DNA of 64,000 nucleotides, taken from contig JAXGNN010000001.1 in the NCBI GenBank assembly GCA_040767925.1, positions 1,344,921-1,408,920 of the forward strand, given 5' to 3'. The notes beneath the pieces are model-generated. The model was not told the DNA's origin. It ran no database searches and was given only the letters and a program-made list of their open reading frames with translations. Of this stretch, positions 3,873-60,682 are shown one piece after another. How positions within the stretch are numbered: the stretch's first letter is position 1; every line of letters begins with the position of its first letter. The DNA is from Christensenellales bacterium. GTDB lineage: Bacteria; Bacillota; Clostridia; Christensenellales; CAG-138. A program made the position numbers and the translations under genes.

Positions 3873-3894
3873 CTGTGCCGGACGGATAAGAACA

Positions 3895-3977
3895 GGGCGG
3901 ATATGGAATCCGCCCCTGCAAAATCCCCGCCGAAGCGGCGTTCTTGATTTTCAATTATCCATTGTCAATTGTCAATT
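3895..3977 (-). repeat. Modular intergenic repeat, full copy (locus 1), abutting the noc stop
   Basis: On the + strand: GGGCGGAT-ATGGA-ATCCGCCC, CTGCAAAATCCC, CGCCG-AAG-CGGCG, TTCTTGATTTTCAATTATCCATTGTCAATTGTCAATT. The last heptamer overlaps the TAA of noc (3976-3978). Confidence 0.9.
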
Positions 3978-4815
3978 ACTTATGTCTCGTCACCCGGATG
4001 CTGATGTCCACGCCGTCCTCGCGGTCGGCCTGCTCGACCTCGACCACCATGCCGGATTCGCGCAGCGCCTTCACCGCGTCGTTGATGGTGTTCATGAAGA
4101 TGCGGTAGTCCCGCACGAGGCGGATGATCATGGGCCGGGGCTTCGCGCCGTCGGCTTTTTCATCGTAAAGGCGGTTGAGCGTCTTTTCGACGTACTGCTC
4201 GGTCTCCTTGACCGAAAGCCCCTTCTGGGCGATTTTGTCCACGAGCTCGAGGCGCGCGCGGTCGTCCGCGAGCTTCAGGAGCGCGCGGGCGTGGCGCTCC
4301 GTGAGGCGCGCGTCCACCATGGCGCTCTTCACGTCGTCCGAAAGCTTCAGAAGGCGCAGCTTGTTGGCGATGGAGGACTGGCTTTTGCCGAGCCGCTCCG
4401 CGAGCTGCTCCTGCGTGAGGTTGTAGGTTTCAAGCAGGGACGCGTAGCACTGCGCCTCCTCGAGGAAGTGCAGGTCCTCGCGCTGCAGGTTCTCGATGAG
4501 CGCCATGACCGCCGAGGTCTCGTCCATGATTTCCTGCTGGATGATGCAGCTCACCGTCTCCATCCCGAGGCTCGTCGCCGCGCGCAGGCGGCGCTCCCCC
4601 GCGACCAGCTCGTACTCGTCGCCCACCCGCCTGACGAGCAAAGGCTGCAGCAGGCCCACCTGCCGGATGGACTGCGCGAGCTCCGCGATGCTCTCCTCGT
4701 CGAAGGTTGTCCGGGGTTGATAGGGGTTCGGGCGGATCTTTGCGACGGGCAGCTCCACGAGCAGCTTGACTGCCTCGGGGCTCCTGTTTTCCTTTAAGAA
4801 GTCGAATACGGGCAT
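3976..4815 (-). CDS. noc: Nucleoid occlusion protein Noc (ParB-family paralogue)
   Basis: ParB N-terminal box LLQPLLVRRVGDEYELVAGERRLRAA, HTH QEQLAERLGKSQSSIANKLRLLKL, and a Noc-type C-terminus RDYRIFMNTINDAVKAL. Sits directly downstream of rsmG as in Bacillus. GGGAGGA RBS. Confidence 0.85.
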   Translation of the reverse strand: MPVFDFLKENRSPEAVKLLVELPVAKIRPNPYQPRTTFDEESIAELAQSIRQVGLLQPLLVRRVGDEYELVAGERRLRAATSLGMETVSCIIQQEIMDETSAVMALIENLQREDLHFLEEAQCYASLLETYNLTQEQLAERLGKSQSSIANKLRLLKLSDDVKSAMVDARLTERHARALLKLADDRARLELVDKIAQKGLSVKETEQYVEKTLNRLYDEKADGAKPRPMIIRLVRDYRIFMNTINDAVKALRESGMVVEVEQADREDGVDISIRVTRHK

Positions 4816-5610: not shown

Positions 5611-5668
5611 TTCGTCAATTCCGCATTTCCTATATTGTTTTTCGGGGAAGGGACGCCGGCGGTTTCGC

Positions 5669-5689
5669 GGGCGGATATGGAATCCGCCC
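5669..5689 (-). repeat. Solo hairpin module of the repeat family (locus 2)
   Basis: GGGCGGAT-ATGGA-ATCCGCCC. Confidence 0.85.
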
Positions 5690-5841
5690 TGCTGTCCCCG
5701 ACAAGGCGGAGAGAGGCGTCCTTAAGGGTTCCGGGAACGGTCCCACCCTTTCCCCTTCCTTCATCGCCCCATGCAGCGTTCTGTACGGCGCGCCCACATC
5801 GCCCTCCTGCCCGCGGAACCGTCCCCGGGCGCGGATTCCCT

Positions 5842-5955
5842 CCCGCGGCGGCGTTCCCCGATTGTCAATTGTCAATTCTCAATTGTCAATTTCCCCTTCC
5901 CGCCCGCGGCGGCGTTCCCCGATTGTCAATTGTCAATTCTCAATTGTCATTTTCC
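5842..5955 (-). repeat. Two tandem 61-bp copies of the heptamer module (subfamily 2), overlapping the mnmG 3' end
   Basis: CCGCGGCGGCGTTCCCCGATTGTCAATTGTCAATTCTCAATTGTCA occurs twice (period 61: 5860 and 5921). Confidence 0.9.
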
Positions 5956-7819
5956 TCAAGTAAATCGTCAGCACCGCGATGTCCGAAGGCGACACGCCCG
6001 AGATGCGCCCCGCGCGGCCGAGGCTCTCGGGCTTCCTTGCCGCGAGCTTCTGGCGCGCCTCAAGGCGCAAGCCTTCCATCGCCATGTAGTCGAGGTCCGG
6101 GGGGAGGGGGGTGTCCTCCAGCTCGCGAAAGCGGCCGACGAGCGCCTTCTCCTTCTCGATGTAGCCCTCGTAGCGCGCGTCGAGCGTGACGGCCTCCGCC
6201 GCCTCGCGGCCGATGTTCGGCAGAAGATCCGGATAGAGCGCGAGGAGGTCCGTGTAGCCGACGCCGCGCCTTCGAAGCAGATCGAACAGCCTGACGCCCG
6301 AGGCGGGCGCGGACTCGCCCCGCGCCTCGAGCAGCCGCCGCAGCGCCTCCCCGGGCGCGACGGACGCGCCGAGCGCGGCCTTCGCCCGGGCGGCCTCCTC
6401 CCGCTTTCGCATCAGGCGGGAATAGCGCTCGTCGGAAACAAGCCCCGTCCGCCTGGAAAGCTCGGTCAGCCGCTCGTCCGCGTTGTCCTGCCGGAGCAGC
6501 AGCCGGTATTCCGCGCGGGAGGTCATCATCCGGTAGGGTTCGTTGGTGCCTTTGCCCGTGAGGTCGTCGCACAGCACGCCGATGTACGCGTCCGCGCGCG
6601 AGAGGAGAAGGGGCGGCTCGCCCCGAAGGTACAGGGCGGCGTTGATCCCCGCGTAAAGCCCCTGCGCCGCGGCCTCCTCATAGCCGGAGCTGCCGTTGAT
6701 CTGCCCCGCGAAGTAAAGGCCCTCTATCTCGCGGGAACGAAGCGCAGCGTCGAGCGCCGTGGGGTCGATGCAGTCGTACTCGATGGCGTAGCCGTAGCGC
6801 GTGACCTGGCAACGTTCAAGCCCTGGTATCGTATGGAGCATGTCCCTCTGCACGTCGGCGGGGAGCGAGGTGCTCATGCCCTGCACGTATTTCTCGTCGG
6901 TCGAGCGCCCTTCCGGCTCGATGAAGAGCTGGTGGCGCTCCTTGTCGGCGAAACGGGTGATCTTATCCTCGATGGAGGGGCAGTAGCGCGTGCCCGTCGC
7001 GCGGATGAGGCCGGAGTACATGGCGCTGCGCGCGATATTCGCGCGGATGACCGCGTGGGTCGCCTCGTTCGTATAGGTGAGGTAGCACGGGACCTGCTCC
7101 CGTTCAAGCTCCCCCGTGAGGAAGGAGAAGCGCGGCTGCGGCTCGTCCCCGAACTGCGGCTCCATTTTTGCATAATCGAGCGTGCGGCCGAGCACGCGCG
7201 CAGGCGTGCCCGTCTTGAAGCGGCGAAGCGCGAAGCCGATCTTTGCGAGCGCCGCGGAAAGCCCTTCCGCGCGCATCAGGCCGGAGGGCCCGCTCTCCCA
7301 TACGCAATCGCCGATGAGCACGCGGCTCTTTAAATACACGCCCGTCGCGACGACGACGGCGCGGCAGGGGATCCTCTCCCCCGCGCTCTTCATGCCGCCC
7401 GAGAGGCGTATGCCGATGACGCGGCCGTTTTCCACGTCGATATGGGCGCACTCGCCCTGCATCAGGGTCAGGCGCTCCTCGGTTTCGAGCGCGCGCTTCA
7501 TGCGCGCGTGATATTCCCGCTTGTCGATCTGCGCGCGAAGGGAGTGCACGGCGGGGCCCTTGCCCGTGTTGAGCATGCGCACCTGAAGGCAGGTGTCGTC
7601 CGCGGCGAGGCCCATCTCGCCGCCGAGCGCGTCGATTTCGCGCACGAGGTGCCCCTTCGACGTGCCGCCCACCGAGGGGTTGCACGCCATGAGGGCGACC
7701 GCGTCGAGGTTGAGCGTCAGGCACAGCGCAGTAAGCCCCATGCGCGATGCGGCAAGCGCGGCCTCAAGCCCTGCGTGCCCTGCTCCCAGTATCGCGATGT
7801 CGTATCCCGTTTCCGCCAC
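5933..7819 (-). CDS. mnmG: tRNA uridine-5-carboxymethylaminomethyl modification enzyme MnmG/GidA
   Basis: GTG start with GGAGGG RBS. FAD motif YDIAILGAGHAGLEAA; CNPSVGG, GQINGSSGYEEAAAQG. The last 5 codons (MTIEN) and the TGA lie inside the repeat. Confidence 0.95.
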   Translation of the reverse strand: MAETGYDIAILGAGHAGLEAALAASRMGLTALCLTLNLDAVALMACNPSVGGTSKGHLVREIDALGGEMGLAADDTCLQVRMLNTGKGPAVHSLRAQIDKREYHARMKRALETEERLTLMQGECAHIDVENGRVIGIRLSGGMKSAGERIPCRAVVVATGVYLKSRVLIGDCVWESGPSGLMRAEGLSAALAKIGFALRRFKTGTPARVLGRTLDYAKMEPQFGDEPQPRFSFLTGELEREQVPCYLTYTNEATHAVIRANIARSAMYSGLIRATGTRYCPSIEDKITRFADKERHQLFIEPEGRSTDEKYVQGMSTSLPADVQRDMLHTIPGLERCQVTRYGYAIEYDCIDPTALDAALRSREIEGLYFAGQINGSSGYEEAAAQGLYAGINAALYLRGEPPLLLSRADAYIGVLCDDLTGKGTNEPYRMMTSRAEYRLLLRQDNADERLTELSRRTGLVSDERYSRLMRKREEAARAKAALGASVAPGEALRRLLEARGESAPASGVRLFDLLRRRGVGYTDLLALYPDLLPNIGREAAEAVTLDARYEGYIEKEKALVGRFRELEDTPLPPDLDYMAMEGLRLEARQKLAARKPESLGRAGRISGVSPSDIAVLTIYLRKMTIEN

Positions 7820-10302: not shown

Positions 10303-10462
10303 GGGGACGGGGGTAATTGACAATTGACAATTGATAATTGACAATCGGGGAACGCCGCCGCGGGCGGGGACGGGGGTAATTGACAATTGACAATTGATAA
10401 TTGACAATCGGGAACGCCGCCGCGAGCGGGAAATTTTGTAGGGGCGGATTCCATATCCGCCC
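10303..10462 (+). repeat. Repeat locus 3: two 63-bp heptamer modules plus one hairpin module
   Basis: GGGGACGGGGGTAATTGACAATTGACAATTGATAATTGACAATCGGGGAACGCCGCCGCG twice (10314 and 10377), then TTTTGTAG-GGGCGGAT-TCCAT-ATCCGCCC (10442-10462). Confidence 0.9.
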
Positions 10463-10560
10463 GCCGTCCTTTCCCCGACGCGGGCGGGGGCAGTTCTGCT
10501 TGTTCGGGGTTCCGGATCTGTCGGCGCTTGCGGCTCCAGCGCCCCCTGCGCCCAAAATTC

Positions 10561-10586
10561 ATTGTCAATTGTCAATTATCAATTGC
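10561..10586 (-). repeat. Isolated heptamer block forming the 3' end of the MocA-like gene
   Basis: ATTGTCAATTGTCAATTATCAATTGC. This is the inverted complement of the blocks at 10314-10410. Confidence 0.85.
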
Positions 10587-11149
10587 TTCAGCTCTTCCGC
10601 GCCGTCCACGTCGGCGAGCTCGCCCGGGTCGGCGACCTGGTGAAGGGCGAGGGCGTCCTCGTGCCTTCTTATGACCTCGCTGCCGCCGCTGTCCCCCGCA
10701 AGGGCGCAGAGCTCGTCGAAGAAACGCCCGGGGAAGATCGCGGGGTTGCCGCGCCTCTGCCCGTTCCCCAGCGCGCGGATGACATGGGGATCCTTCTCAA
10801 ACGCGTCGACGAGGGCCAAGACGCTCTCCCGCGTGAGCCGCGGCTGATCCGCCACCATGAACATGGCGGCGTCTGCGCCGAGCGCCCTCGCGCGCTCAAG
10901 CCCCATGCGGATCGTACGGGAGACGCCCTCCTCCGGGCGGTCGTTCTTCACGGCGAAAAAGCCGCGCCTCTCGGCCTCCGCGAGGATCTCCCCGCTGCCG
11001 GAGACGACGATGGTCGCGCGAAGCTTCTCCGCAGGCACGGCGTCGAGCGCGCGCGCGTAGAGCGGCTTCCCCCGGTAGGGCGCGAGGAGCTTGTTCGAGC
11101 CGAAGCGCCTCCCGGCGCCCGCGGCCATCAATATGCATACGAGATTCAT
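10565..11149 (-). CDS. MobA/MocA-like molybdenum-cofactor nucleotidyltransferase (YgfJ type)
   Basis: ILMAAGAGRRFGSNKLL, VADQP, GNPAIFP motifs. ATGA overlap with the upstream hydantoinase stop. The last 6 codons (QLIIDN) and the TGA are repeat sequence. Confidence 0.75.
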   Translation of the reverse strand: MNLVCILMAAGAGRRFGSNKLLAPYRGKPLYARALDAVPAEKLRATIVVSGSGEILAEAERRGFFAVKNDRPEEGVSRTIRMGLERARALGADAAMFMVADQPRLTRESVLALVDAFEKDPHVIRALGNGQRRGNPAIFPGRFFDELCALAGDSGGSEVIRRHEDALALHQVADPGELADVDGAEELKQLIIDN

Positions 11150-16262: not shown

Positions 16263-17144
16263 ATGAAGAAATCTTGCATGGCAATAGCGCTCGCGCTCGT
16301 CCTCTCCCTGGCGCTCCTCGGCTGCTCCGCCGGGGAAACCGGTTCCGGCGACGCCTACAAGCTCGTGGAAAAAGGCAAGCTGCTCGTGGCGCTCAGCCCC
16401 GACTTCGCGCCGATGGAGTTTGTGGACACCTCGAAAACCGGCCAGGAGCAGTACGTCGGCTTCGACGTGACGCTCGCGAACTTCATCGCCGAGGAGATGG
16501 GCCTCGAGCTCGTGATCAAGCCCATGTCCTTCGAGGCCTGCCAGACCGCCGTGCAGCTTGGGGCGGTCGACATGTCCATCTCCGGCTTCTCCTGGACGGA
16601 GGAGCGCGCGGAAAATTTCAGCCTTTCGGATTACTACTACGCGGGCGACAACGAGACGGAGCAGACCGTCATCACGCTCGCCGACAAAGCCGGGACCTTC
16701 TTTGAGCCCGCCGACTTTACCGGGCTGAAGATCGCCGCGCAGGCGGCCTCGCTGCAGGAGAACCTGTGCAACGAGCAGCTCAAGGAATACGCGGCTTCCA
16801 TCGAGCTTTATAAGTCCATAGACGACGCGGTGCTCGCGCTGAAGACGGGCAAGGTGGACGCCGTCGCGGTGGCGTACGGAAACGGCGAGGCCATCATCGC
16901 CAACAACCCCGACATCGGCATGTCCGGCTTCGAGTTCACGATCGACGAGGCCGCCGCCAACAACCTCATTCTGCTCAACAAAAGCGCCGCCGACCTGACC
17001 GAGGCCGTGAACGCGATCCTCGCCAAGGCCTACGACGCGGGTTATTACGGGCAGTGGTACGAGAAGGCCAAGGAGCTCGCGGGCATCCCGACGGCCGCGG
17101 ACGTCAGCTACGACGACGAGGGCAACGCCGCGCCGCAGGGCTGA
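16263..17144 (+). CDS. Polar amino-acid ABC transporter substrate-binding lipoprotein
   Basis: Lipobox LALLGCS. SBP_bac_3-like blocks LLVALSPDFAPMEF, GAVDMSISGFSWTEER. GGAGGA RBS. Confidence 0.88.
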   Translation: MKKSCMAIALALVLSLALLGCSAGETGSGDAYKLVEKGKLLVALSPDFAPMEFVDTSKTGQEQYVGFDVTLANFIAEEMGLELVIKPMSFEACQTAVQLGAVDMSISGFSWTEERAENFSLSDYYYAGDNETEQTVITLADKAGTFFEPADFTGLKIAAQAASLQENLCNEQLKEYAASIELYKSIDDAVLALKTGKVDAVAVAYGNGEAIIANNPDIGMSGFEFTIDEAAANNLILLNKSAADLTEAVNAILAKAYDAGYYGQWYEKAKELAGIPTAADVSYDDEGNAAPQG

Positions 17145-17291: not shown

Positions 17292-17975
17292 ATGGACCTT
17301 GCGACGATCCTACAAAACATCGTAAAAATCCTGGCCAAATACTGGGACGTGTTCCTGATCAAGGGCGTGAGCGTCACGCTCTCCCTCGCGGCGATCACCG
17401 TCTTCTTCGGGGCGATCATCGGCGCGCTGCTGGCGCTGGCGCATCTCTCGCGCTCCCGGGTGCTGCGGTTTTTCGTGAGCGCGTTCGTCGAGGTGATCCG
17501 CGGGACGCCGATTCTGCTGCAGCTGTATTTCGGCTATTTCATCCTCCCGCTGATGTTCCCCGCGCTCGGGCTCAACGACTATTCGAGCATCGCGGTGGCG
17601 CTCGTCATCAACAGCTCCGCCTATGTTTCCGAGGTCATCCGTTCCGGCATACAGGCCGTGGACAAGGGGCAGAGCGAAGCCGCGCGCAGCCTGGGGCTCA
17701 ACAAGACACACACGATGCTGCGCGTCGTGCTGCCGCAGGCCGTCAAGAACATACTGCCCGCGCTGGGCAACGAGTTCGTGATGATCATCAAGGAAACGTC
17801 CCTGGCCTCCACCTTCTTCGTGGGCGATCTCATGACCTCCTACCTCATCGTCAAGGGCGCGACCTTCCTCGCCTTCGAGGGGCTGGTGATCGTCGGCGTG
17901 ATCTACTTCATCCTCACGTTCAGCCTAAGCAAGCTCATCGGCGTATACGAGCGCAAGCTCAAGAGCCGCGATTGA
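17292..17975 (+). CDS. Polar amino-acid ABC transporter permease (His/Glu/Gln/Arg family)
   Basis: EVIRGTPILLQLYF, EAARSLGL, IKETSLAS motifs. Confidence 0.9.
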   Translation: MDLATILQNIVKILAKYWDVFLIKGVSVTLSLAAITVFFGAIIGALLALAHLSRSRVLRFFVSAFVEVIRGTPILLQLYFGYFILPLMFPALGLNDYSSIAVALVINSSAYVSEVIRSGIQAVDKGQSEAARSLGLNKTHTMLRVVLPQAVKNILPALGNEFVMIIKETSLASTFFVGDLMTSYLIVKGATFLAFEGLVIVGVIYFILTFSLSKLIGVYERKLKSRD

Positions 17976-18005: not shown

Positions 18006-18782
18006 ATGAATGCATCCGATACGATAACGGCGGCCAAGGCCGCGGGTTATGAGGAGCCCATGATCCGCACGGTGGGGCTCGCCAAGAGCTTCGGCAAACT
18101 CGAGGTGCTTCGCGGCGTCGACGAGCAGGTCGCGCGCGGCGAGGTCGTCTCCGTCATCGGCCCGTCGGGCGGCGGAAAAAGCACGTTTTTGCGCTGCCTG
18201 AACCTGCTCGAGGAGCCGACGGGCGGCAGGATCTTCTTCGAGGGCGTCGACATCACCGGCAAAGGGGTGGACATCAACCTGCACAGGCAGAAAATGGGCA
18301 TGGTGTTTCAGCAGTTCAACGTCTTTGCGAACCTGTCCGTGAAGGAGAACATCACCTTGGCGCCGGTGCTGCTCAAAAAGAAAACGAAACCCGAGGCCGA
18401 CGAGCTGGCCCGGGAGCTGCTCGCCCGCGTCGGCCTCACCGACAAGATTGACGAGCGGCCGGGCCGCCTCTCCGGCGGGCAGAAGCAGCGCCTCGCCATC
18501 GTGCGCGCGCTCGCGATGGAACCGGACGTGATGCTTTTCGACGAGCCCACGAGCTCCCTCGACCCCGAGATGGTGGGCGAGGTGCTCGCGGTCATCCGCG
18601 ACCTCGTCGCCGAGGGCATGACGACCGTCATCGTCACGCACGAGATGGGCTTCGCGCGCGAAGTCTCCGACCGCGTACTCTTCATGGACGAGGGTCTCAT
18701 CGTCGAGAGCGGCCCGCCCGCGGAGCTGTTCTTCCGCCCAAGGATGGAGAGGACAAAGGAGTTTTTGAGCAAAGTATTATAA
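18006..18782 (+). CDS. Polar amino-acid ABC transporter ATP-binding protein
   Basis: Walker [10 protein letters not shown], signature [15 protein letters not shown], Walker B MLFDEPTS. Confidence 0.93.
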
Positions 18783-19122
18783 ACAATTGACAATTGACAA
18801 TGGATAATTGACAATCAGAAACGCCGCTTTGCGGGGATTTTGCAGGGGCGGATTCCATATCCGCCCCGTTCAACAATTGACAATGGATAATTGACAATCA
18901 GGAACGCCGCTTCGGCGGGGATTTTGCAGGGGCGGATTCCATATCCGCCCCGTTCAACAATTGACAATGGATAATTGACAATCAGGAACGCCGCTTCGGC
19001 GGGGATTCTGTAGGGGCGGATTCCATATCCGCCCTGTTCAACAATTGACAATGGATAATTGACAATCAGGAACGCCGCTTCGGCCGGGATTTTACAGGGG
19101 CGGATTCCATATCCGCCTTGTT
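18781..19122 (+). repeat. Four head-to-tail full copies of the modular repeat (90+84+84+84 bp)
   Basis: Unit: AACAATTGACAATGGATAATTGACAATCAGGAACGCCGCTTCGGCGGGGATTTTGCAGGGGCGGATTCCATATCCGCCCCGTTC. Copies at 18781-18870, 18871-18954, 18955-19038, 19039-19122. The array starts on the TAA of the ABC ATPase gene. Confidence 0.95.
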
Positions 19123-19215
19123 CTGTCCCCGCGAAATGATTGACGGCAGGCATCGGCAGGGACGGCTTTCGCGTTAAGGGCGAAGGCCGTATTTGGCCGT
19201 TTTTTCCCTCGCCCC

Positions 19216-19244
19216 TTGCATTCCTCCCATAACTTCTATATACT
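19216..19244 (+). promoter_or_regulatory. Candidate sigma-A promoter of the tandem-GNAT gene
   Basis: TTGCAT (19216-19221), 17 nt, TATACT (19239-19244). Confidence 0.45.
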
Positions 19245-19280
19245 GGTTGAAATTTCCGCACGGACGAGTTTGGGGGAAGC

Positions 19281-20309
19281 ATGATGCAGCTTAAAACGGA
19301 ACGCCTCATCCTGCGCGCCTTTCGCATGGACGACTTCGCCGCCGTCCACGCTTACGCGAGCACCATCGAAAACACCGTCTACATGCCCTTCGGGCCGAAC
19401 AGCGAGGGGGACACGCGCGCCTTCCTCGAGAAGGCGGTCGCTTGCGGCATGGAGGAGCCTTGCCGCCAATATGAATTCGCCGTGACGCTGCGCGATTCGG
19501 GGGAAGTGATCGGCGGCTGCGACCTCATCCTCACCTCCCCGGGGACGGGCGAAATCGGCTGGATCCTGCGCCGCGACTTCTGGCGGCAGGGCTACGGCGC
19601 GGAGCTCGGCCGCGCGCTCCTGCAGTTCGGGTTCGACGAATTGCGCCTGCATCGCATCACCGCCGTGTGCGACGCGGAAAACGCCCCCTCCTGGGGGCTG
19701 ATGGAGAAGCTCGGCATGCGCCGCGAGGCGTGTTTCCTCGACGCGCGGCGCGGGAACAAGCTTTCCGATAAGCCGTACGGAGACGAGCTGCGTTATGCGA
19801 TCCTGCGGGACGAGTGGGAAATTCAAAGGGAGGTCGCCTATTACAACGCGCTGCCGTGCGCGTTTTTTGGCTTCGTCGAGGTGCCCGAACTTGCGGGCGG
19901 GGACATCTACCTCGTCTGCACGCAGAAGAAGCCCGCCGATCCCGAAAAGAAATACGTGCCCGCCTATCAGTTCGCCATTTGCCGCAGCGGGGAGAAGATC
20001 GGCAACATCGGCCTTCGCGTCGGCTACACGGACGGCCTGTATTACGGCGGGCAGATCGGCTACGACGTCTACGAGCCCTTCCGGGGGCGCGGCTACGCGG
20101 CGGAAGCCTGCCGCCTGGTCCTTCCCATCGCGCGGGCGCACAAAATGGAGAAACTCCTCATCACCAACGCGGAGGCCAACGCGGCCTCGCGGCGCGTGTG
20201 CGAGAAGCTCGGCGCGCGGCGCGTCCGCCTCGCGCGGCTGCCGGAATGGACCGAGCTTTATCGGGACGGACTGAGGTACGTCAACATATTCGAGCTCGAG
20301 GTCCCGTAA
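19281..20309 (+). CDS. Two-domain GNAT N-acetyltransferase (RimJ/RimL-like)
   Basis: N-terminal half TERLILRAFRMDDFAAVHAY..WRQGYGAELGRAL. C-terminal half FRGRGYAAEACRLVL..NAASRRVCEKLG. Confidence 0.8.
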   Translation: MMQLKTERLILRAFRMDDFAAVHAYASTIENTVYMPFGPNSEGDTRAFLEKAVACGMEEPCRQYEFAVTLRDSGEVIGGCDLILTSPGTGEIGWILRRDFWRQGYGAELGRALLQFGFDELRLHRITAVCDAENAPSWGLMEKLGMRREACFLDARRGNKLSDKPYGDELRYAILRDEWEIQREVAYYNALPCAFFGFVEVPELAGGDIYLVCTQKKPADPEKKYVPAYQFAICRSGEKIGNIGLRVGYTDGLYYGGQIGYDVYEPFRGRGYAAEACRLVLPIARAHKMEKLLITNAEANAASRRVCEKLGARRVRLARLPEWTELYRDGLRYVNIFELEVP

Positions 20310-23503: not shown

Positions 23504-23548
23504 AGTAATGCTGTATTGTTGAAAAAACAATGCGATCCCGCTGCGCTT

Positions 23549-23622
23549 GCGGGTGTAGCTCAGTGGCAGAGCTTCGGCTTCCCAAGCCGACTATGTGGGT
23601 TCGATTCCCATCACCCGCTCCA
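23549..23622 (+). tRNA. tRNA-Gly (anticodon CCC)
   Basis: Manual cloverleaf: acceptor GCGGGTG/CACCCGC, D arm GCTC-AGTGGCA-GAGC, anticodon arm TCGGC-TTCCCAA-GCCGA, T arm GTGGG-TTCGATT-CCCAT, discriminator U73, encoded CCA. Confidence 0.88.
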
Positions 23623-23682
23623 GCACGATCCCGTGTCATGCGGGAAACATACAGCGACAGATTTTTAGGAGGATGTCAAACG

Positions 23683-24894
<1,212 letters not shown>

Positions 24895-24947: not shown

Positions 24948-24980
24948 GACGCCTTACAAATGAGATTATTGCATAAAATA

Positions 24981-25069
24981 AAGGCGGATATGGAATCCGC
25001 CCTTGTAATACCCCCGCCGCAGCGGCGTTCTTTTTATTGTCAATTGTCAATTGTCAATTGTTAATTAAT
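24981..25069 (-). repeat. Modular repeat, full copy (locus 5), abutting the upp stop
   Basis: GGCGGAT-ATGGA-ATCCGCC .. CGCCG-CAG-CGGCG .. ATTGTCAATTGTCAATTGTCAATTGTTAATT. The upp TAA is at 25070-25072. Confidence 0.9.
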
Positions 25070-25699
25070 TTACTTCGTCCCGAACAGCCTGTCGCCCGCG
25101 TCGCCGAGGCCCGGCACGATGTAGCCGTGGGAGTTGAGGTGGTCGTCGATGGCCGCGACGAAGATGTCCACGTCCGGGTGCGCCTTCTGCACCGCGGCGA
25201 TGCCCTCGGGCGCGGCGATGATGTTGACGAGCTTGACGTTCTTGCAGCCCGCCTTCTTCACGATATCGATGCCCTCCACGGCGGAGCCGCCCGTCGCCAG
25301 CATGGGATCGACGATGATGATGTCGCGCTCGCTGACGTCCGGCGGGAGCTTGCAGTAATAATCCACGGGAGCGAGCGTTTCCGGGTCGCGGTAGAGGCCG
25401 ATATGGCCCACCTTCGCGGCGGGGATGAGGTTGAGCATGCCGTCGACCATGCCGAGGCCCGCGCGCAAAATGGGGACGATGCCGAGCTTTTTGCCCGCGA
25501 GCACCTTGGTCGTCGCGGGGCCGATGGGCGTTTCCACCTGCGTTTCCTCGAGGGGGAGATCGCGCGTCGCCTCGTAGGTTAGAAGCGTCGCAAGCTCCTC
25601 GACAAGCTCCCGGAACTCCTTGGAGCCGGTGGACTTGTCCCGCAGATGCGTCAGCTTGTGCTGCACGAGGGGATGGTTGATGACGTGTACGTTGTTCAT
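25070..25699 (-). CDS. upp: Uracil phosphoribosyltransferase
   Basis: Start at ATG 25699 (AAGGAG RBS). [49 protein letters not shown]. Confidence 0.95.
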
Positions 25700-25744
25700 A
25701 AAAACTCCTTTCGCGGTATCGGAAGATTGCAAAAATAAAGAGGC

Positions 25745-27227: not shown

Positions 27228-27269
27228 TTTTCCTCTTTCTTTTCGCCGAAAGGACGGTTCTGCCGAAAG

Positions 27270-27357
27270 GCGGGCGGATATGGAATCCGCCCCTACAAAA
27301 ACCCCGCCGCAGCGGCGTCTCTTTATTGTCAATTGTCAATTATCAATTGTCAATTGC
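27270..27357 (-). repeat. Modular repeat, full copy (locus 6), abutting the prfA stop
   Basis: GGGCGGAT-ATGGA-ATCCGCCC CTACAAAAACCC CGCCG-CAG-CGGCG .. ATTGTCAATTGTCAATTATCAATTGTCAATTGC. The prfA TGA is at 27358-27360. Confidence 0.9.
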
Positions 27358-28425
27358 TCATTCCGCGTTCGATAATTTCTCACTCTGCTCCTTGAGGATA
27401 AGCGCCTCGATGACCTCGTCCATGTCCCCGTCGAGAAAGGCCTCGAGCTTGTAGAGCGTGACGCCCACGCGGTGGTCGCTCACGCGCCCCTGCGGGAAGT
27501 TGTAGGTGCGGATGCGCTCGCTGCGGTCTCCGCTGCCCACCTGCGCGCGGCGCGCGCCCGCCTCGGCCTCCGCCGCGCGGGCCTGATAGAGCTCGAGAAG
27601 GCGGCTTTTGAGCACGCGCATGGCCTTCTCCCTGTTCTTGTGCTGGCTCCGCTCGTCCTGGCACTGCACGATGAGGCCCGTAGGGAGGTGCGTGATGCGT
27701 ATGGCGCTCTCGGTTTTGTTGACGTGCTGGCCGCCCGCGCCGCCGCTGCGGTAGGTGTCGATCGAAAGCTCGTCGGGGTTGATGTCCACCTCGACGTCCT
27801 CGGCCTCCGGCAGCACCGCGACCGTGGCCGCGCTCGTATGGATGCGCCCCTGGGACTCCGTCTCCGGCACGCGCTGCACGCGGTGAACGCCGCTCTCGTA
27901 TTTCATGCGGGAGTAGGCGCCGCGCCCCTGCAGGCTCAGCACGACCTCCTTCACGCCGCCGATTTCGGTGTAGTTCTCGTACATCAATTCGCTTTTGTAG
28001 CCGTGGCGCTCCGCGTAGCGCTGGTACATGCGAAGCAGGTCCGCGCCGAAGAGGGAGGCTTCCTCGCCGCCCGTGCCCGCGCGGATTTCGATCATCACGT
28101 CCCTCTCGTCGTTGGGGTCCTTCGGGAGGAGCATCAGGCGGAGCTTTTCCACAAGCGCCTTCTCCTTCCCCTGGAGCGCGTCGAGCTCCTCGCGCGCGAG
28201 TTCCCGCAGTTCGGGCTCGAGCTTGCCCTCGAGCAGGGCGCGGCACTCCCCGATGTCACGCGTCAGCGCCGCGTATTCGTCGTACGCCCCAGCGATATCT
28301 ATAAGCCCCGCGTGCTCGCGCGCGAACGCGCGGAACCTCTGCTGGTCCGCGATCACCTCGCTTTGGGACATGAGCCGCGCGAGCTCGTCGCTGCGCGCCT
28401 TAATCGATTGGAGTTTCTCCAGCAT
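27358..28425 (-). CDS. prfA: Peptide chain release factor 1
   Basis: [16 protein letters not shown] (GGQ motif), PETES region. Confidence 0.97.
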
Positions 28426-42150: not shown

Positions 42151-42198
42151 GCCGAAGGGGCGGCTCCCGCGGCGCTTAAAACAGCGTCGCCCGTCGCC

Positions 42199-42280
42199 GG
42201 GCGGATATGGAATCCGCCCCTAAATGGACACCGACATGGGCGCGAACATCAAAACGGGGGTGGATATGGTATCCGCCCCC
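42199..42280. repeat. Two direct copies of the hairpin module only (locus 7)
   Basis: GGGCGGAT-ATGGA-ATCCGCCC (42199-42219) and GGGGGTGGAT-ATGGT-ATCCGCCCCC (42256-42280). Confidence 0.85.
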
Positions 42281-42306
42281 GCCGGTTTTATCCTGAGTTG
42301 CCTCAA

Positions 42307-43932
42307 TTATCTCAATTCCCGCTCGTAGACCACCCTGCCGTCCACCATGGTCATGACCGGGAGGATATCCCGTATTTTTTCCACGTCGCAGGTGAAGATG
42401 TCTTCGTCCAGCACGATGAGGTCGGCGCAGTGGCCGGGCCTGATGCGGCCTTTGACATTCTCCAGGAACTGCGCGTAAGCCGAGCCCTCGGTGAAAAGGT
42501 CGATCGCGAGCGGCACGTCGAGGCATTCCTCCGGGAAGAAGCCGGCCTCGGGCGCGCCCGTGGTGTCCTTGCGGGTGACGGCGCAGTAGATGCCGAGGAA
42601 CGGGTTGATCTCCTCCACAGGCCCGTCGGAGCCGAATGCCATGCCCACGCCCTTCTCGTGCATGGTTTTAAAGGGGAGGAACCAGCGGTTCATCTCCATC
42701 GGGAAGCGCGCCGCGACGGTGTAGGGGTCGGTGTTCAGGAAGATCGGCTGCACGTGGGTGATGACGCCCAGTTGCGCCGTGCGCTCGATGAGGGGCACGT
42801 CGAGGCACTGGTAATGGACGACGGCGTGGCGCAGGCGGTTTTCGCCGTCCGTCAAAACTTTTTCATAGGAATCGAGCACCATTTCGATGGCGCGGTCGCC
42901 CAGCGCGTGCGTGATGACCTGCATGCCGTTCCCGACGGCCAAGCCGACCATGGAGTCGATCAGCTCGTTGCTCATCGTCTCGGTGCCATAGTTGCCGGGA
43001 TCGTCGAGATAGCCCCCGCGCACCACGGCCGTGCGGCCGCCGAGAGAGCCGTCCTTGAAAAGCTTCAAGGGGCCGCGCGTGAGCATGCCGCCGTATTTGC
43101 CGGTTTTGTGCTCGCCCTTAAGATACGCCCTGAATTCGTCGGGGCTGTGGAAGCAGAGCTGGTGCTCGTAGCGAACGGGGGCCTTTCCCTCGTCGTAGAT
43201 CTCGTGCATGAGGCGGAAGAACTCCGCGTCCTCCATATAGGGGTTCATGCCGATGTCGTTGGACTGCACGGAGGTCAGGCCGTGCGAGACGGCGAACTCC
43301 ATCGCCCGGAGGATCCACGCCTTGAATTCCTCGCGCTCGGGCGGCTTCACCGCGCCCTGGATCGGATAGATGGCGCCTTCCGCGAAATAGCCGCTGGGGA
43401 AGCCGTCCTCCTCGATCCCGAAAAAGCCGTCCTTGTACTGGGGGGCGCCCGGGCCGAGGCCGACGGCCTCGATAACTTTGGTGTTGGCGGCGGCGACGTG
43501 GACGCAGGCCCGGATCAGGACCACCGGGATTTCCGTGGAAATGCGGTCGACGTCGTGCCGGTTGGGGTAACGCTTCTCCCCCGGGGGAAAGAGGTCCTGG
43601 TTCCAGCCGGAGGCGATCATGCCGTTTTTGACCGCGGCGGGATGCTCTTCGATGAACCTGCGGCAGCGCGCCACGATTTCGTCGATGGAACGGCAGCCGC
43701 GAAGGTCCGCCTGGTTGAGGCGCTGTGCCACCATCGAGAGGTGCAGGTGGGAATCGTTCAGGCCGGGGATCACGGTCCTGCCTCCGCAGTCGTAAACGTC
43801 GCATCCGCCCGCGCGCGCGAGAATCTCCTCGTCGGAACCCACGCTTTTGATGACGCCGTCCTCGATCAGCATCGCCTCGGCGAACCGGTCGCGGCCGAGA
43901 TAGACCTTCCCGTTGATGATTGCCCTCTTCAT
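42307..43932 (-). CDS. Amidohydrolase (Amidohydro_3 / YtcJ-like)
   Basis: PGLNDSHLHL, long lid insertion, HALGDRA, HVQPIF. Confidence 0.8.
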   Translation of the reverse strand: MKRAIINGKVYLGRDRFAEAMLIEDGVIKSVGSDEEILARAGGCDVYDCGGRTVIPGLNDSHLHLSMVAQRLNQADLRGCRSIDEIVARCRRFIEEHPAAVKNGMIASGWNQDLFPPGEKRYPNRHDVDRISTEIPVVLIRACVHVAAANTKVIEAVGLGPGAPQYKDGFFGIEEDGFPSGYFAEGAIYPIQGAVKPPEREEFKAWILRAMEFAVSHGLTSVQSNDIGMNPYMEDAEFFRLMHEIYDEGKAPVRYEHQLCFHSPDEFRAYLKGEHKTGKYGGMLTRGPLKLFKDGSLGGRTAVVRGGYLDDPGNYGTETMSNELIDSMVGLAVGNGMQVITHALGDRAIEMVLDSYEKVLTDGENRLRHAVVHYQCLDVPLIERTAQLGVITHVQPIFLNTDPYTVAARFPMEMNRWFLPFKTMHEKGVGMAFGSDGPVEEINPFLGIYCAVTRKDTTGAPEAGFFPEECLDVPLAIDLFTEGSAYAQFLENVKGRIRPGHCADLIVLDEDIFTCDVEKIRDILPVMTMVDGRVVYERELR

Positions 43933-50789: not shown

Positions 50790-50853
50790 GGGACGGGATT
50801 CGTTTGCTTGCGGGGCAGCGGGGACGGTCCTGCCCTTCTCCCTGTGGGCAGCC

Positions 50854-50874
50854 GGGCGGATATGGAATCCGCCC
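50854..50874. repeat. Solo hairpin module (locus 8)
   Basis: GGGCGGAT-ATGGA-ATCCGCCC followed by CTAC. Confidence 0.85.
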
Positions 50875-50907
50875 CTACATAGGGCGCAATATCCCCGTCA
50901 CATGAAA

Positions 50908-54041: not shown

Positions 54042-54061
54042 AAGGGCGAACGGAATACCGC

Positions 54062-54144
54062 CCGCTGGGGGAGCCGACGCGCATGCGTTCGTGCTGAGAG
54101 ATACCCTTGGAACCTGTCCGGGTAATGCCGACGAAGGGAAGCGG
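54062..54144 (+). promoter_or_regulatory. TPP (THI-box) riboswitch aptamer
   Basis: CCGCT-GGGGAGC..GCTGAGAGATACCCTTGGAACCTGTCCGGGTAATGCCGACGAAGGGA-AGCGG. Matches the conserved CUGAGA, ACCUGAUCYGGRUAAUGCC and GGGA blocks, with a P1 closing helix. Confidence 0.88.
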
Positions 54145-54182
54145 AGGACAAATACATCAAACCGCCTTCGGCGTTTGACTGT

Positions 54183-54226: not shown

Positions 54227-54892
54227 ATGAAATTCGTGCTGTTTGAAAAGCTCGCGGAGCTTTCGGGCAAAGAATGGGCGATGCTCATCGCGGCGCTCGT
54301 GATAGCCGCCGCGCTCATCGCCCTTTTGGCGCGGCTCAACAAGCGCCGCAAGGCAGAGGCCGCCGCGAAACCCGGCATCCCCACGCGCGTGCTCGTGCAG
54401 GGCGCGCTCTGCCTTTCCATGGCGTTCGCCTTAAGCTACGTCAAGCTCTTCTCGATGCCGCTCGGCGGCTCTGTGACGCTCTGCTCCATGCTGCCCATCG
54501 TGGTCTTCGGCTATCTGTACGGCCCGGCCTACGGCTTCTCCGTGGCGTTCGCGTACAGCATCCTCCAGATCGTGCAGGGCGCGTGGATCGTCCACCCCGT
54601 GCAGTTCGCGCTCGACTATTTCATCGCCTTCACGGCGCTGGGCCTCGGCTCCCTCTTCCCGAGAAGCTTGCCCTTGGGCATGGCGGTTTCCGGCCTCGCC
54701 CGCCTTTTGTGCAGCGTCGTCTCCGGCACGGTGTTCTTCGCGGAATACGCGACGGAGGCCGGCTACGCGAGCGCGCTGTGGTATTCCGTCGTCTACAACG
54801 CCTCGACCATCGGCGTGGAAACCGCGCTGTGCGCCGTCGTCGCGGCGCTGCCGCCCGTCGCGCGCGCGATAGAGCGGATCAGGAAAGCGTAA
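54227..54892 (+). CDS. thiT: Energy-coupling-factor thiamine transporter S component ThiT
   Basis: Small polytopic membrane protein directly behind a TPP riboswitch. ThiT-like helices (LSYVKLFSMPLGGSVTL..). Extra N-terminal TM segment. Confidence 0.78.
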   Translation: MKFVLFEKLAELSGKEWAMLIAALVIAAALIALLARLNKRRKAEAAAKPGIPTRVLVQGALCLSMAFALSYVKLFSMPLGGSVTLCSMLPIVVFGYLYGPAYGFSVAFAYSILQIVQGAWIVHPVQFALDYFIAFTALGLGSLFPRSLPLGMAVSGLARLLCSVVSGTVFFAEYATEAGYASALWYSVVYNASTIGVETALCAVVAALPPVARAIERIRKA

Positions 54893-58327: not shown

Positions 58328-59206
58328 CTATTCCGCCGCCCCCTGCATCAATATTTCATACAGCCATTCGAGGTTTTCCCGCGTGTAATACTCGATGGTG
58401 ATCCTGCCGCGCTTCTCGGTGCCTTCTATGGAAACCTTGGTGCCCAATTGCTCGCGCAGTTTCTCCTGCGCGGCGAACATGTCTCCCGTCTGCTTCGGGC
58501 GCTTTTCGGGCTTCTCCTCCCGCGCGTTGGGGAAAAGCTCCGCGTTGTTGACGGACGCGGCCTTGTTCTCCACCTCGCGCACCGACCAGCCGAACTTCAC
58601 GGCGTCGGTCGCGAGCGTTTTTTGCCTGTTCTCATCCCTGACGCCCGCGATGGCGCGCGCGTGGCCGGAGGAAAGCTCCCCCTCGCGCACGAGCTTCTGC
58701 ACGTCCTCCGGCAGGTTCAAGAGGCGCAGCGCGTTGGCGATGACCGGGCGGGATTTTCCCAAGCGCTGCGAGACCTCCTCCTGCGTGAGGTCGTGCTGGA
58801 GCATCAAAAACCGGATCGCCGCCGCCTCCTCGATGGGGTTCAGGTTCTCGCGCTGGAGGTTTTCCACGAGCGCCACCTCGTGCACCTCGGCGTCGTCGAA
58901 CTCCTTAACGATGACGGGCACCTTCTGCATCCCGGCGAGCCTCGCCGCGCGGTAGCGCCGCTCGCCCGCGACGATGCTGTACCGCTCGCCGACGCGCCGG
59001 ACGATGATCGGCTGTACCATGCCGTGCCGCTCGATGCTCGAGGCGAGCTCGCGCAGCCTTTCCTCGTCGAACGTCTTTCGCGGCTGCTCCGCGTTGGTGT
59101 CGATGAGGTAAATATCCGCCTGCACGACGCCCTCGGGCGGCTCCGTCGAAAAGTCCCCCAAAAGCGCGTCCAGCCCCCGGCCGAGTCCCTTCTTGTTCAC
59201 AGCCAT
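58328..59206 (-). CDS. parB: Chromosome partitioning protein ParB/Spo0J
   Basis: GLGRGLDALL, QPRKTFDEE, VQPIIVRR..YSIVAGERRYRAA, HTH QEEVSQRLGKSRPVIANALRLLNL. TAATG overlap with parA. Confidence 0.95.
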   Translation of the reverse strand: MAVNKKGLGRGLDALLGDFSTEPPEGVVQADIYLIDTNAEQPRKTFDEERLRELASSIERHGMVQPIIVRRVGERYSIVAGERRYRAARLAGMQKVPVIVKEFDDAEVHEVALVENLQRENLNPIEEAAAIRFLMLQHDLTQEEVSQRLGKSRPVIANALRLLNLPEDVQKLVREGELSSGHARAIAGVRDENRQKTLATDAVKFGWSVREVENKAASVNNAELFPNAREEKPEKRPKQTGDMFAAQEKLREQLGTKVSIEGTEKRGRITIEYYTRENLEWLYEILMQGAAE

Positions 59207-59979: not shown

Positions 59980-59993
59980 CGTTTTCCTCCGAA

Positions 59994-60589: not shown

Positions 60590-60605
60590 TGTTTCACATG
60601 AAACA
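60590..60605. promoter_or_regulatory. parS site 1 (one mismatch from the palindrome)
   Basis: TGTTTCACATGAAACA vs Firmicute consensus TGTTNCACGTGAAACA. Confidence 0.8.
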
Positions 60606-60626
60606 TCCGCGCCGCGCTTGAAGCGA

Positions 60627-60642
60627 TGTTTCACGTGAAACA
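60627..60642. promoter_or_regulatory. parS site 2 (perfect palindrome)
   Basis: TGTTTCACGTGAAACA. Confidence 0.9.
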
Positions 60643-60666
60643 TCCGCAATGCGCTCCGAAGAACAT

Positions 60667-60682
60667 TGTTTCACGTGAAACA
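60667..60682. promoter_or_regulatory. parS site 3 (perfect palindrome)
   Basis: TGTTTCACGTGAAACA. Confidence 0.9.

Follow-up and report, generated by a model that had tools for sequence, protein, structure and literature searches.

Structure of the array and its surroundings

The window analysed here is a 64-kb stretch of DNA, and all positions are counted from its first letter. It contains an amino-acid ABC operon with the genes of the SBP (16263-17144) and the permease (17292-17975), the last gene being that of the ABC transporter ATPase (18006-18782, + strand; Pfam ABC_tran, 118 bits), whose open reading frame ends on a native TAA at 18780-18782. The C-terminus of this protein, ...EFLSKVL*, is identical in a relative (locus L124) that is free of the array. 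Downstream, according to the list of open reading frames and Pfam, follows a double-GNAT acetyltransferase gene (19281-20309, + strand). Between the two genes, at 18781-19122, there are four head-to-tail units of 90, 84, 84 and 84 bp which begin on the TAA of the ATPase gene. The preliminary description had reported just this layout, and it is borne out both by TRF, which finds a period-84 array at 18790-19117 (3.9 copies, 95% matches, score 600), and by manual dissection of the units, the count of four being that of the window's assembly alone.

Each unit, all on the + strand, is built of three modules, namely a tract of the heptamer AATTGAC, a small GC hairpin whose loop is UUCG, together with a short U run, and a large hairpin with a stem of 9 bp, GGGGCGGAT-TCCAT-ATCCGCCCC, referred to below as the REP hairpin. 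Unit 1 (18781-18870) has a heptamer tract of four repeats at 18783-18815, including an AATGGAT variant, and a GCAG head before its REP hairpin at 18845-18867; its excess length comes from one additional heptamer, and its small hairpin has a deletion of 1 nt. Unit 2 (18871-18954) can be taken as the consensus, with the heptamer tract at 18875-18898, the small hairpin CCGC-UUCG-GCGG at 18907-18918 within an extended stem at 18899-18926, the GCAG head at 18926-18929 and the REP hairpin at 18929-18951. In unit 3 (18955-19038) the REP hairpin lies at 19013-19035 with a CCCT tail, and this is the sole unit of the array with an intact GTAG head, while unit 4 (19039-19122) has an ACAG head and a REP hairpin at 19097-19119, whose CCTT tail makes two G·U pairs at the base of the stem. 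Units 2-4 differ from each other at 3-5 of 84 positions, and the differing sites, heads (GCAG/GTAG/ACAG) and tails (CCCC/CCCT/CCTT), are the same few that had been quoted before.

Because the heptamer length is not a multiple of three, TGA and TAA codons fall in all three sense frames, and every unit has stop codons in all three + frames followed by hairpins, so the earlier view of four consecutive stop-cassette and hairpin units holds. For unit 2 a fold of -33.9 kcal/mol (z -3.3) with three stem-loops is predicted; the values are -19.1 kcal/mol (z -4.4) for the REP by itself and -141.6 kcal/mol (z -6.8) for the whole array. The hexamer TTGACA occurs nine times on the + strand of the array and never on the - strand, in line with the eight or more given earlier. 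In the whole window, the heptamer pattern has 53 matches against 0.03 expected and the hairpin pattern 12 against 0.01, which excludes chance for both. Moreover, in two independent short-read assemblies from Logan (SRR27558879 and ERR14064717) the start of unit 1 or the REP of the last unit is present and the contigs break inside the array; similarly, look-ups with exact proteins returned only short-read contigs, all of them ending inside it.

Downstream of the array, a probable intrinsic terminator of the ABC operon lies at 19162-19205 (+ strand), with an 11-bp stem ACGGCUUUCGC/GCGAAGGCCGU, then another small stem, GGCC..GGCC, and a run of six Ts; the terminator scan matches here at 19185-19198 plus GTTTTTTCCC. 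The call is weak, since the z-score for the fold of the whole segment is only -0.85. As the array is located upstream of the operon's own terminator, which went unmentioned in the preliminary description, it is, judging from the sequence, probably the 3′UTR of the ABC operon. The putative promoter of the GNAT gene proposed earlier (19217-19245, + strand; TTGCAT, 17 nt, TATACT) was likewise read from sequence; it is conserved in a second strain except for one base of the -35 and stays below the pass mark in a consensus promoter scan. The distance from the end of the array to this promoter is 95 bp, as had been stated approximately.

Dispersed copies of the composite element

The composite element is dispersed in the window, where 12 REP copies, including the four of the array, are found, all between genes, and the composite copies are typically located right where a co-oriented gene has its stop codon. 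The one closest to the array units (89-91% identity) is a full copy at 3891-3978 (- strand), which shares with them the AATGGAT heptamer, the GCAG head and the TGTTCT tail, and whose first heptamer holds the TAA of a ParB-like gene (3976-4815). Two other full copies, also on the - strand, lie at 24978-25067, 3 nt past the stop of upp (25070-25732), and at 27268-27358, where a copy with a GTAG head, lying between two genes of the same direction, starts at the TGA of prfA (27358-28425). A degenerate copy at 42198-42330 (- strand) has two REP hairpins (42257-42279 and 42198-42220) and heptamer remnants that hold the TAA of an amidohydrolase gene (42307-43932), and a solitary GTAG REP hairpin is found in a convergent intergenic region at 50853-50875 (- strand).

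Besides these, the module of heptamers and small hairpin is itself duplicated in tandem at two sites. At 5836-5955 (- strand) TRF and pattern matches reveal a duplication of 2 × 61 bp, and mnmG (5933-7819) ends on a TGA inside its heptamer tract, the REP hairpin being located 150 bp beyond it at 5668-5690. At 10303-10466 (+ strand) there is a duplication of 2 × 63 bp, then one GTAG REP at 10441-10463; an inverted heptamer tract (10561-10585, - strand) faces it and holds the stop of the gene at 10565-11149, and this arrangement is MITE-like. The GTAG head is kept in only 4 of the 12 REPs of the window and in one of the four of the array, which leaves mobility mediated by a RAYT unproven here; no RAYT gene is present within the 64-kb window.

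The REP hairpin family and its link with Y1 transposases

Outside this genome, at least 120 loci of other genomes have the 20-mer of the REP without any change, and it also occurs in 26 viral contigs; it is common to many genera. The GTAG head is present in 179 of about 215 family members across these loci and in 37 of the 39 from viral contigs. Of 1000 occurrences of GTAG, 90 have a perfect hairpin of 7 bp or more behind them, compared with 3-7 per 1000 for control tetramers, and the stems amount to 131 distinct ones. At least five compensatory stem variants were seen (GCGCAT/ATGCGC, GCAGAT/ATCTGC, GCCGAT/ATCGGC, GAGGAT/ATCCTC and GACGGAT/ATCCGTC). Selection on the stem as a strand-specific RNA was also considered and dropped, because G·U and A·C mismatches are similarly frequent (17 vs 14) and give no sign of selection specific to the sense RNA.

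The transposase genes that adjoin or contain the REP are of the IS200-like Y1, RAYT type. A Y1_Tnp gene (PF01797, 30.2 bits, cutoff 23) in locus L091 of another genome carries the REP, and Y1_Tnp homologues adjoin it in loci L047 (Fumia xinanensis), L114, L117, L033, L069, L084, L094 and L118. Some matches of the 20-mer come from MAGs labelled Coriobacteriaceae, Bulleidia, Bacteroides and Desulfobacteraceae; they are mostly intergenic, only L091 and L118 having it inside Y1 ORFs, and as the labels or the binning of MAGs may be unreliable, we do not build on a spread at the phylum level. Arrays of 2-8 copies containing the REP occur in eight other loci. Inverted doublets of the array-type REP with a sibling REP are found in other genomes (L032, L041, L089, L113 and L117); the four REPs of the array are all on the + strand, and the alternating or inverted order of BIMEs and REPINs is absent from it.

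REPs are recognized as palindromes of 20-40 nt which have GT[AG]G 0-2 nt 5′ of the stem and lie mostly downstream of genes. Here the short GC-rich palindrome, the GTAG head at the level of the family, the copy number and extragenic position, and the compensatory stems are those of a GTAG-class REP. The REP module is thus a member of a large GTAG-tagged family with compensated stems, which stands beside or inside Y1 transposase genes elsewhere. Neither this identity, nor the RAYT-type link, nor a conservation extending far beyond this genome appeared in the preliminary description. In the literature searched, the sequence strings of the REP and of the heptamer had no match, and a keyword search for three-frame-stop repeats yielded nothing relevant.

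Heptamer tracts

In about 1 Mb of loci there are 54 tracts of period 7, while periods 6, 8 and 9 have 1, 3 and 13, respectively. The composite elements of other genomes have unrelated heptamers, for example TAATGCG, AGATAAT, GGAATGA and AAGTGAA, none of which resembles a -35 hexamer. Five independent heptamer families have a REP next to them, and in all five it is located about 40 nt downstream in the same orientation, which suggests a functional unit. Tracts without a REP also exist, both in the window (5836-5955 and 10561-10585) and in other loci (L095, L087 and L005), and inverted heptamer pairs surround central hairpins in L009 (3880-4060), L083 (2440-2640), L095 (2900-3080) and the window (10303-10585).

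What is claimed for the heptamers is only the period-7 excess and the consistent orientation in those five families. Selection for stop codons is not claimed, since in a permutation test on 33 heptamers a stop on exactly one strand was observed in 21 against 18.2 expected, a count that AT-rich composition predicts. Single-linkage clustering of the heptamer families at one mismatch put all of them in one group and was discarded.

Origin of the array

The identity matrix shows that the array units are 94-96% identical to each other and 76-91% to the dispersed copies. In the relative with the same gene order (L124) the element is absent at this site, the spacer there being 132 bp. In the second strain the array ends with a different unit, whose REP is identical to the REP of unit 3; the strains differ at 3 of 30 positions in the REP of the terminal unit and at 3 of 160 in the flank. 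The similarity of the units, the element-free relative and the strain-specific terminal unit together point to a lineage-specific insertion followed by local amplification. The earlier suggestion of a recent amplification by slippage or unequal recombination is therefore supported as to local amplification, while "recent" is an overstatement because the units differ by 4-6%. In a metagenome scan for the tandem junction (the REP, then AATTGACAAT within 4-14 nt) there were no matches, and a scan for the composite pattern gave a single match, L127, in a different arrangement; other arrays of the exact array unit were accordingly not found in these scans.

The reading that we find most probable, and by a good measure likely, takes the array for a cluster of head-to-tail units that arose by local amplification from a non-coding composite repeat of the REP class. 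The literature of Di Nocera et al. counts in its support; the same orientation of all units, unlike the inverted REP doublets (REPIN/BIME), counts against it. Such inverted doublets are thought to be moved by RAYTs. According to the proposed course, one composite copy would have been inserted, possibly through the action of a RAYT-type enzyme, after the TAA of the ATPase gene; the increase to four would then be due to slippage during replication or to unequal recombination, either of them between units, and the GTAG heads of three of the four units would have mutated after the expansion. The ABC operon transcript would have the array as its 3′UTR, where ribosomes reading through would be stopped within a few codons and eight stable hairpins would be presented. 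Slowing of 3′-exonucleases or partial termination has been reported for enterobacterial REPs, and by analogy the hairpins of the array could act in the same way. Altogether we take the array to be for the most part selfish or nearly neutral DNA that may incidentally affect the behaviour of mRNA 3′ ends, rather than a dedicated regulator.

Alternative explanations

Several other explanations have to be weighed against the amplified REP-class repeat, and among them a MITE-like element, or half of one, deserves the most attention though it seems to us rather unlikely. Here the heptamer arrays would be terminal repeats, offering multiple binding sites to a transposase, and the REP only a frequent passenger or neighbour, so that the element would not be a REP/RAYT derivative, while its local amplification would be the same. 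The tracts without a REP, the inverted heptamer pairs around central hairpins, the strong excess of period 7 and the common, defined boundaries of dispersed copies that span all three modules all speak for it, but the heptamers are linked to no transposase, the REP keeps its place about 40 nt downstream in the same orientation in each of the five families, and the heptamers vary by genome while the REP 20-mer is constant, which is unexpected for a passenger. It is more doubtful still that selection has shaped the array as a device that isolates the ABC operon from the GNAT gene, with four weak intrinsic terminators or insulators in tandem (the small hairpin with its U run, reinforced by the REP). 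Each unit does have a GC hairpin and then a run of four Us (five in the copy at 27268), with an A-rich segment alongside such as bidirectional terminators have, and the copies are located at gene ends. However, an intrinsic terminator needs a GC-rich stem of at least 5 bp with a U-rich tract immediately after it, whereas the U run here lies 3 nt from a 4-bp stem and, by the predicted fold, pairs with the A-rich segment before it. In addition, the consensus terminator scan has no match inside the array, its sole match (19185-19198) belonging to the separate terminator that trails it; the copy at 24981 (24978-25067) has no U run; some copies, for example those at 27268 and in L095, are inside operons right before the RBS of the downstream gene; and the relative L124 does without any such element.

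The preliminary description had also noted that the TTGACA hexamers are presented to RNA polymerase, and it is very improbable that the nine of them on the + strand form a binding platform for the sigma-A holoenzyme, as a promoter cluster or a polymerase sink. One match of the form TTGACA-17-GACAAT exists in unit 1, but units 2-4 lack a -10-like hexamer at the spacing of 16-18 nt that marks a sigma-70-type promoter, the equivalent elements elsewhere use heptamers unlike a -35, and the elements, placed at stop codons, run in the direction of the gene before them and do not face downstream starts. The TTGACA is specific to the heptamer of this lineage, and a polymerase-binding role is thus unsupported. 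A CsrA/Rsm-type sponge RNA, with GGA motifs in the hairpin loops, has even less to recommend it and is hardly to be believed. The Rfam search on the element gave nothing at the gathering threshold, and the weak Rsm-like matches, RsmV with 21.1 bits and rsmX with 19.1 bits, were rejected as their thresholds of 100 and 56 are far above, so that the element falls outside Rfam clan CL00106. A GGAUA does stand in a loop of the predicted sense fold and AUGGA in the antisense REP loop, but the AATGGAT heptamer which gives the sense GGA loop is found only in the array and the copy at 3894 (3891-3978), and no promoter and terminator pair brackets an sRNA. As for the antisense ORF of 170 amino acids (18815-19327, - strand), the chance that it is a real repeat protein is next to nothing. 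Its frame, the one antisense frame with a single stop, is open through the array, owing to the 84-bp (28-codon) period and the strand bias of stops in the heptamer; yet its GC3 is 0.55 against 0.86±0.04 in the genes of the window, it has neither an RBS nor a Pfam match, and it overlaps the start and the promoter of the GNAT gene, and hence it was rightly treated as an artefact from the beginning.

Comparison with known repeat systems

Like the REP/BIME elements of enterobacteria, the REP/REPIN of Pseudomonas and the SMAG of Stenotrophomonas, which are associated with the Y1 transposases RAYT/TnpA-REP, the element has GTAG before a short GC-rich palindrome. Its extragenic copies are many and lie mostly just 3′ of genes, its stems are kept by compensation, and Y1 (IS200-like) transposase genes are flanked by the REP in related genomes, all as in REP/RAYT systems. 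REP clusters arise by tandem reiteration of a REP plus flanking DNA (PMC3733652), to which the array bears a likeness; however, its units are all head-to-tail and not alternating. The described REP families are mostly proteobacterial (PMC6006769), while the host here is a high-GC Clostridia genome, probably Oscillospirales-like. Unlike known REPs, moreover, the REP forms a unit of 84-90 bp together with a heptamer tract and another, small hairpin, the GTAG heads of the window copies are mostly mutated, and the 20-mer of the array is common to many genera and also occurs in viral contigs.

Other systems share some of these features. MIRU-VNTRs of Mycobacterium tuberculosis are tandem units of 40-100 bp in the intergenic spacers of operons, dispersed and abutting the upstream stop codon; MIRUs have short in-frame ORFs which overlap the flanking stop and start codons. 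The array resembles them in unit size, in its intergenic position at a stop codon and in its dispersed loci, and variation of the copy number would be expected by this likeness, but its hairpins are strong and none of the three sense frames stays open in it. The BOX elements of Streptococcus pneumoniae are modular (boxA-boxB(n)-boxC), with a variable internal copy number and stable stem-loops in the transcript. They are likewise modular intergenic repeats of a Firmicute with stem-loop modules; there is, however, no sequence similarity, BOX has neither the GTAG hairpin nor the heptamer tract, and no link of BOX with Y1 transposases is known. Finally, the inverted heptamers around central hairpins in the window (10303-10585), L009, L083 and L095 recall the terminal inverted repeats of MITEs, whereas the array and most window copies are one-ended, and neither a target-site duplication nor a cognate transposase was found.

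Implications

To go one step further, the heptamer tract, the small hairpin and the GTAG REP could together be an undescribed and widespread mobile 3′-end cassette of Oscillospirales-like Clostridia and phages, a tentative idea which we hold possible but do not favour. If it is true, the period-7 tracts, being out of codon phase, would close three frames at entry and may double as terminal repeats; landing on or in the last codons of essential genes (mnmG, prfA, upp and the parB-like gene) would be harmless; and the amplification of the cassette would become visible as tandem arrays, through which the length of 3′UTRs would vary.

As regards its class, the array belongs, as a case of local amplification, to a known type of bacterial intergenic repeat; it occurs here in a Clostridia genome and has an unusual additional module of 7-base repeats. 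It reveals an active-looking GTAG REP family in gut-type Clostridia, while nearly all characterised REP/RAYT systems are those of Proteobacteria, and the occurrence of one 20-mer across many genera and viral contigs bears on how REPs spread. On the practical side, short-read assemblies are interrupted by arrays of this kind, two independent samples being examples, and spurious long antisense ORFs result; the arrays could also serve as VNTR loci for strain typing. Some housekeeping genes take their stop codon from the heptamer tract, and the coupling of a REP to out-of-frame heptamers on stop codons suggests a simple and harmless colonisation of gene ends by a selfish element.

Structure and dispersal of the repeat

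The tandem array of four head-to-tail copies that the preliminary description placed at 18781-19122 (+) is borne out by TRF (period 84, 3.9 copies, 95% matches, score 600) and by alignment of the units, which on reading and alignment measure 90, 84, 84 and 84 bp. Its first base falls on the TAA (18780-18782) of the ABC ATPase ORF (18006-18782, +; Pfam ABC_tran). Each unit comprises module A, with three or four AATTGAC heptamers and one AATGGAT variant; module B, a small hairpin CCGC-UUCG-GCGG with an A-rich/U-rich outer stem and then a U4 run; and module C, a tetranucleotide head followed by a hairpin of 9-bp stem, GGGGCGGAT-TCCAT-ATCCGCCCC. The heads in units 1-4 are GCAG, GCAG, GTAG and ACAG. 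Unit 1 carries an additional heptamer and its small hairpin has lost 1 nt, and units 2-4 differ from one another at 3-5 of 84 positions, which are the very sites of difference quoted earlier. Every unit has stops in all three plus-strand frames. A single unit is predicted to form three stem-loops (-33.9 kcal/mol, z -3.3), and the predicted fold of the whole array has -141.6 kcal/mol (z -6.8). Both motifs are far above chance in the window, with 53 matches to the heptamer pattern against 0.03 expected and 12 to the hairpin pattern against 0.01. Since the two ends of the array are found in two independent short-read assemblies, the element is real; both contigs break inside the array, and the copy number of four is that of the window's own assembly alone.

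The composite repeat is scattered over gene ends in the window. Its full copies are those at 3891-3978, 24978-25067 and 27268-27358 on the minus strand and at 10366-10466 on the plus strand; modules A and B are tandemly duplicated at 5836-5955 (2 × 61 bp) and 10303-10430 (2 × 63 bp), and module C occurs without them at 42198, 42257 and 50853. The preceding genes, named from a GC3-based gene table and Pfam, are ParB-like, mnmG, MobA-like, ABC ATPase, upp, prfA and amidohydrolase genes, and the heptamer tract begins on the stop codon of the upstream gene, which shares its orientation, or within a few nucleotides of that codon. The working stop codon is inside the tract for the ParB-like gene (3976-4815), mnmG, the MobA-like gene (10565-11149) and the amidohydrolase gene (42307-43932). 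As the TGA of mnmG/gidA (5933-7819) is within the tract at 5933-5955 (-), the repeat supplies the coding sequence for the last MnmG residues (…KMTIEN).

Several other features of the window were observed. Three perfect 16-bp parS-like palindromes TGTTTCACGTGAAACA, 37 bp apart (60590-60682), adjoin a GNAT gene, parA (59206-59997) and parB (58328-59206), near jag/khpB (60939-62057); the replication origin is probably not far from the window. A TPP riboswitch (RF00059, 57.2 bits; 54057-54156, +) lies upstream of the gene 54227-54892, and the octamer ATGCAAAT is repeated 3.5 times at 63582-63609. A tRNA-Gly(CCC) at 23549-23622 (+) is overlapped by a heuristically called ORF (23530-24894), whose true start must therefore be further downstream.

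Module C as a GTAG-class REP

The module C 20-mer GGGCGGATTCCATATCCGCC, scanned against 185,579 species-representative genomes, was found at no fewer than 120 loci. Among the matches listed, the majority belong to Oscillospiraceae, Ruminococcus, Gemmiger, Christensenellaceae and unclassified Clostridia MAGs, and a few to bins labelled Coriobacteriaceae, Bulleidia, Bacteroides and Desulfobacteraceae. In MAGs labelled Coriobacteriaceae, Bulleidia, Desulfobacteraceae/Thermodesulfobacteriota or Bacteroides (loci L012, L018, L031, L061, L067, L004, L023, L049, L065, L079, L045) the 20-mer is exact and mostly in intergenic DNA, which reflects either genuine cross-phylum spread or mis-binning and mislabelling.

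The four bases 5′ of the hairpin are GTAG in nearly all matches listed, and in 179 of about 215 family members when up to 3 mismatches are allowed. In the family loci, 90 per 1000 GTAG occurrences lead directly into a perfect hairpin with a stem of 7 bp or more, against 3-7 per 1000 for ten control tetramers, with 131 distinct stems; at least five variants of the module C stem are doubly compensated, and G·U and A·C mismatches in the stems (17 vs 14) show no strand bias. Sibling hairpins nearby keep the GTAGGGG head with different stems, often in inverted orientation as in the REP doublet/BIME layout.

Moreover, the family is linked with IS200-like Y1 transposases. In L091 (2338-3027, +) the 20-mer is in frame within a 229-aa ORF matching Pfam Y1_Tnp (30.2 bits, cutoff 23), and likewise within such an ORF in L118 (6349-6618, -); in both, the REP segment, translated VGADSISAP, lies between the HUH motif and the C-terminal half, and L091 carries three tandem copies of it. 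By tblastn, homologues of the L091 protein occur within a few hundred bp of a REP in eight more loci, and a REP is immediately upstream of a Y1 gene in L047 (Fumia xinanensis), L117 and L114. The same tblastn search found no Y1 homologue in the window, and three of the four GTAG heads at this locus are decayed; both facts weaken the case for a RAYT-type origin. GTAG head, compensated stems, sibling doublets and Y1 neighbours are the hallmarks by which GTAG-class REPs and their transposases, the RAYTs, are defined in the literature (Nunvar 2010, Ton-Hoang 2012, Di Nocera 2013, Quentin 2018). The array is thus a REP-class composite repeat. As an array it is ordinary among REP families: eight other family loci have REP-containing tandem arrays of 2-8 copies, and PMC3733652 describes REP clusters in which REPs are tandemly reiterated with flanking DNA.

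History of the locus

In a relative (L124/L125, GCA_964396085.1) whose GNAT is 69% identical, the order SpoIIE, SBP, permease, ATPase, GNAT, DUF885 is the same as in the window and the C-terminal ATPase residues are the same, and neither heptamer nor REP is present in the 132-bp ATPase-GNAT spacer; the element was accordingly gained in the window's lineage, directly after the native stop codon. Units 2-4 are 94-96% identical to one another, against 89-91% to the copy at 3891 and 76-86% to the remaining window copies, so that local amplification, as had been proposed, is upheld over repeated insertion. A RAYT-type enzyme may have carried out the founding insertion, after which unequal recombination or slippage would have expanded the array.

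In a second strain (L123, ERR14064717; GNAT 98% identical) the contig starts inside the last REP, which equals unit 3 of the window exactly and has 3 mismatches to unit 4 over 30 positions. The next 160 bp, which are unique flank, have only 3 differences. The array content therefore differs between the two strains, by unit loss, gain or conversion. In the same strain the putative GNAT -35 is altered by one base, and the putative terminator tract of the ABC operon (100-112, window 19193-19205) reads TTTTCC, not TTTTTT.

Heptamer tracts and alternative explanations

In other genomes the layout recurs with unrelated heptamers: the heptamer tract is followed, after roughly 40 nt that hold a small hairpin, by a co-oriented GTAG REP. 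Among these heptamers are TAATGCG/TAATTCG (L010, L063, L112, L030), AGATAAT (L071, L077, L092), GGAATGA (L034), AAATGAT (L089) and AAGTGAA (L014). In about 1 Mb of Clostridia loci, 54 tracts have period 7, against 1, 3 and 13 of periods 6, 8 and 9; in 42 of the 54, every frame of one strand is closed, and 28 stand at the end of an ORF that has 80 or more codons. Of 33 heptamers, 21 carry a stop on one strand, and a permutation test expects 18.2 from AT-rich composition, hence selection for stops is not demonstrated. What stands is the period-7 excess, the gene-end position and the orientation relative to the REP, constant in five of five heptamer families.

The strongest rival to a REP-class repeat is a MITE with heptamer terminal repeats. 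MITE-like inverted pairs of tracts, with one or two small GC hairpins between them, occur in L009 (3880-4060), L083 (2440-2640), L095 (2900-3080) and the window (10303-10585), where 10303-10466 (+), the sole region with an opposite-oriented copy, opposes an inverted tract at 10561-10585 (-) in a MITE-like arrangement. A terminator array ranks next, but the small hairpins of the units do not qualify as terminators; within 18600-19400 only 19185-19198 resembles a terminator, with T6 after it and an 11-bp stem (19162-19190) before it.

Less favoured is a platform for sigma-A. The eight or more TTGACA hexamers claimed for the array do exist, nine being counted on its plus strand; a role for them as an RNA polymerase target is unlikely, since the heptamer varies between genomes, and a -10-like partner exists in unit 1 only. 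A Csr-type sponge ranks lower still, with Rfam at 21 bits against 100. Last comes an antisense protein: in one antisense frame there is just one stop, leaving a 170-aa ORF that is open because the period is 28 codons and AATTGAC has no antisense stops. With GC3 of 0.55 against 0.86±0.04 in window genes, neither Pfam family nor RBS, and an overlap with the GNAT start, it is an artefact, as first supposed.

Implications of the REP-class repeat

The array lies upstream of the operon's putative terminator; being between the stop codon and that site, it is most simply the predicted 3′UTR of the ABC operon and would be transcribed as such. Its stops and hairpins would end read-through translation, and the hairpins may delay degradation by 3′ exonucleases or bring about partial termination. 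Enterobacterial REPs are reported to act in this way. PMC3733652 proposes such effects for REPs in general. The heptamer-coupled REP architecture in Clostridia appears to be undescribed in the searchable literature. The 20-mer is moreover found in 26 IMG/VR viral contigs (L128-L153), with as many as three copies in 10 kb and with the GTAG head in 37 of 39 cases, and these contigs offer a possible route of REP spread between genera.
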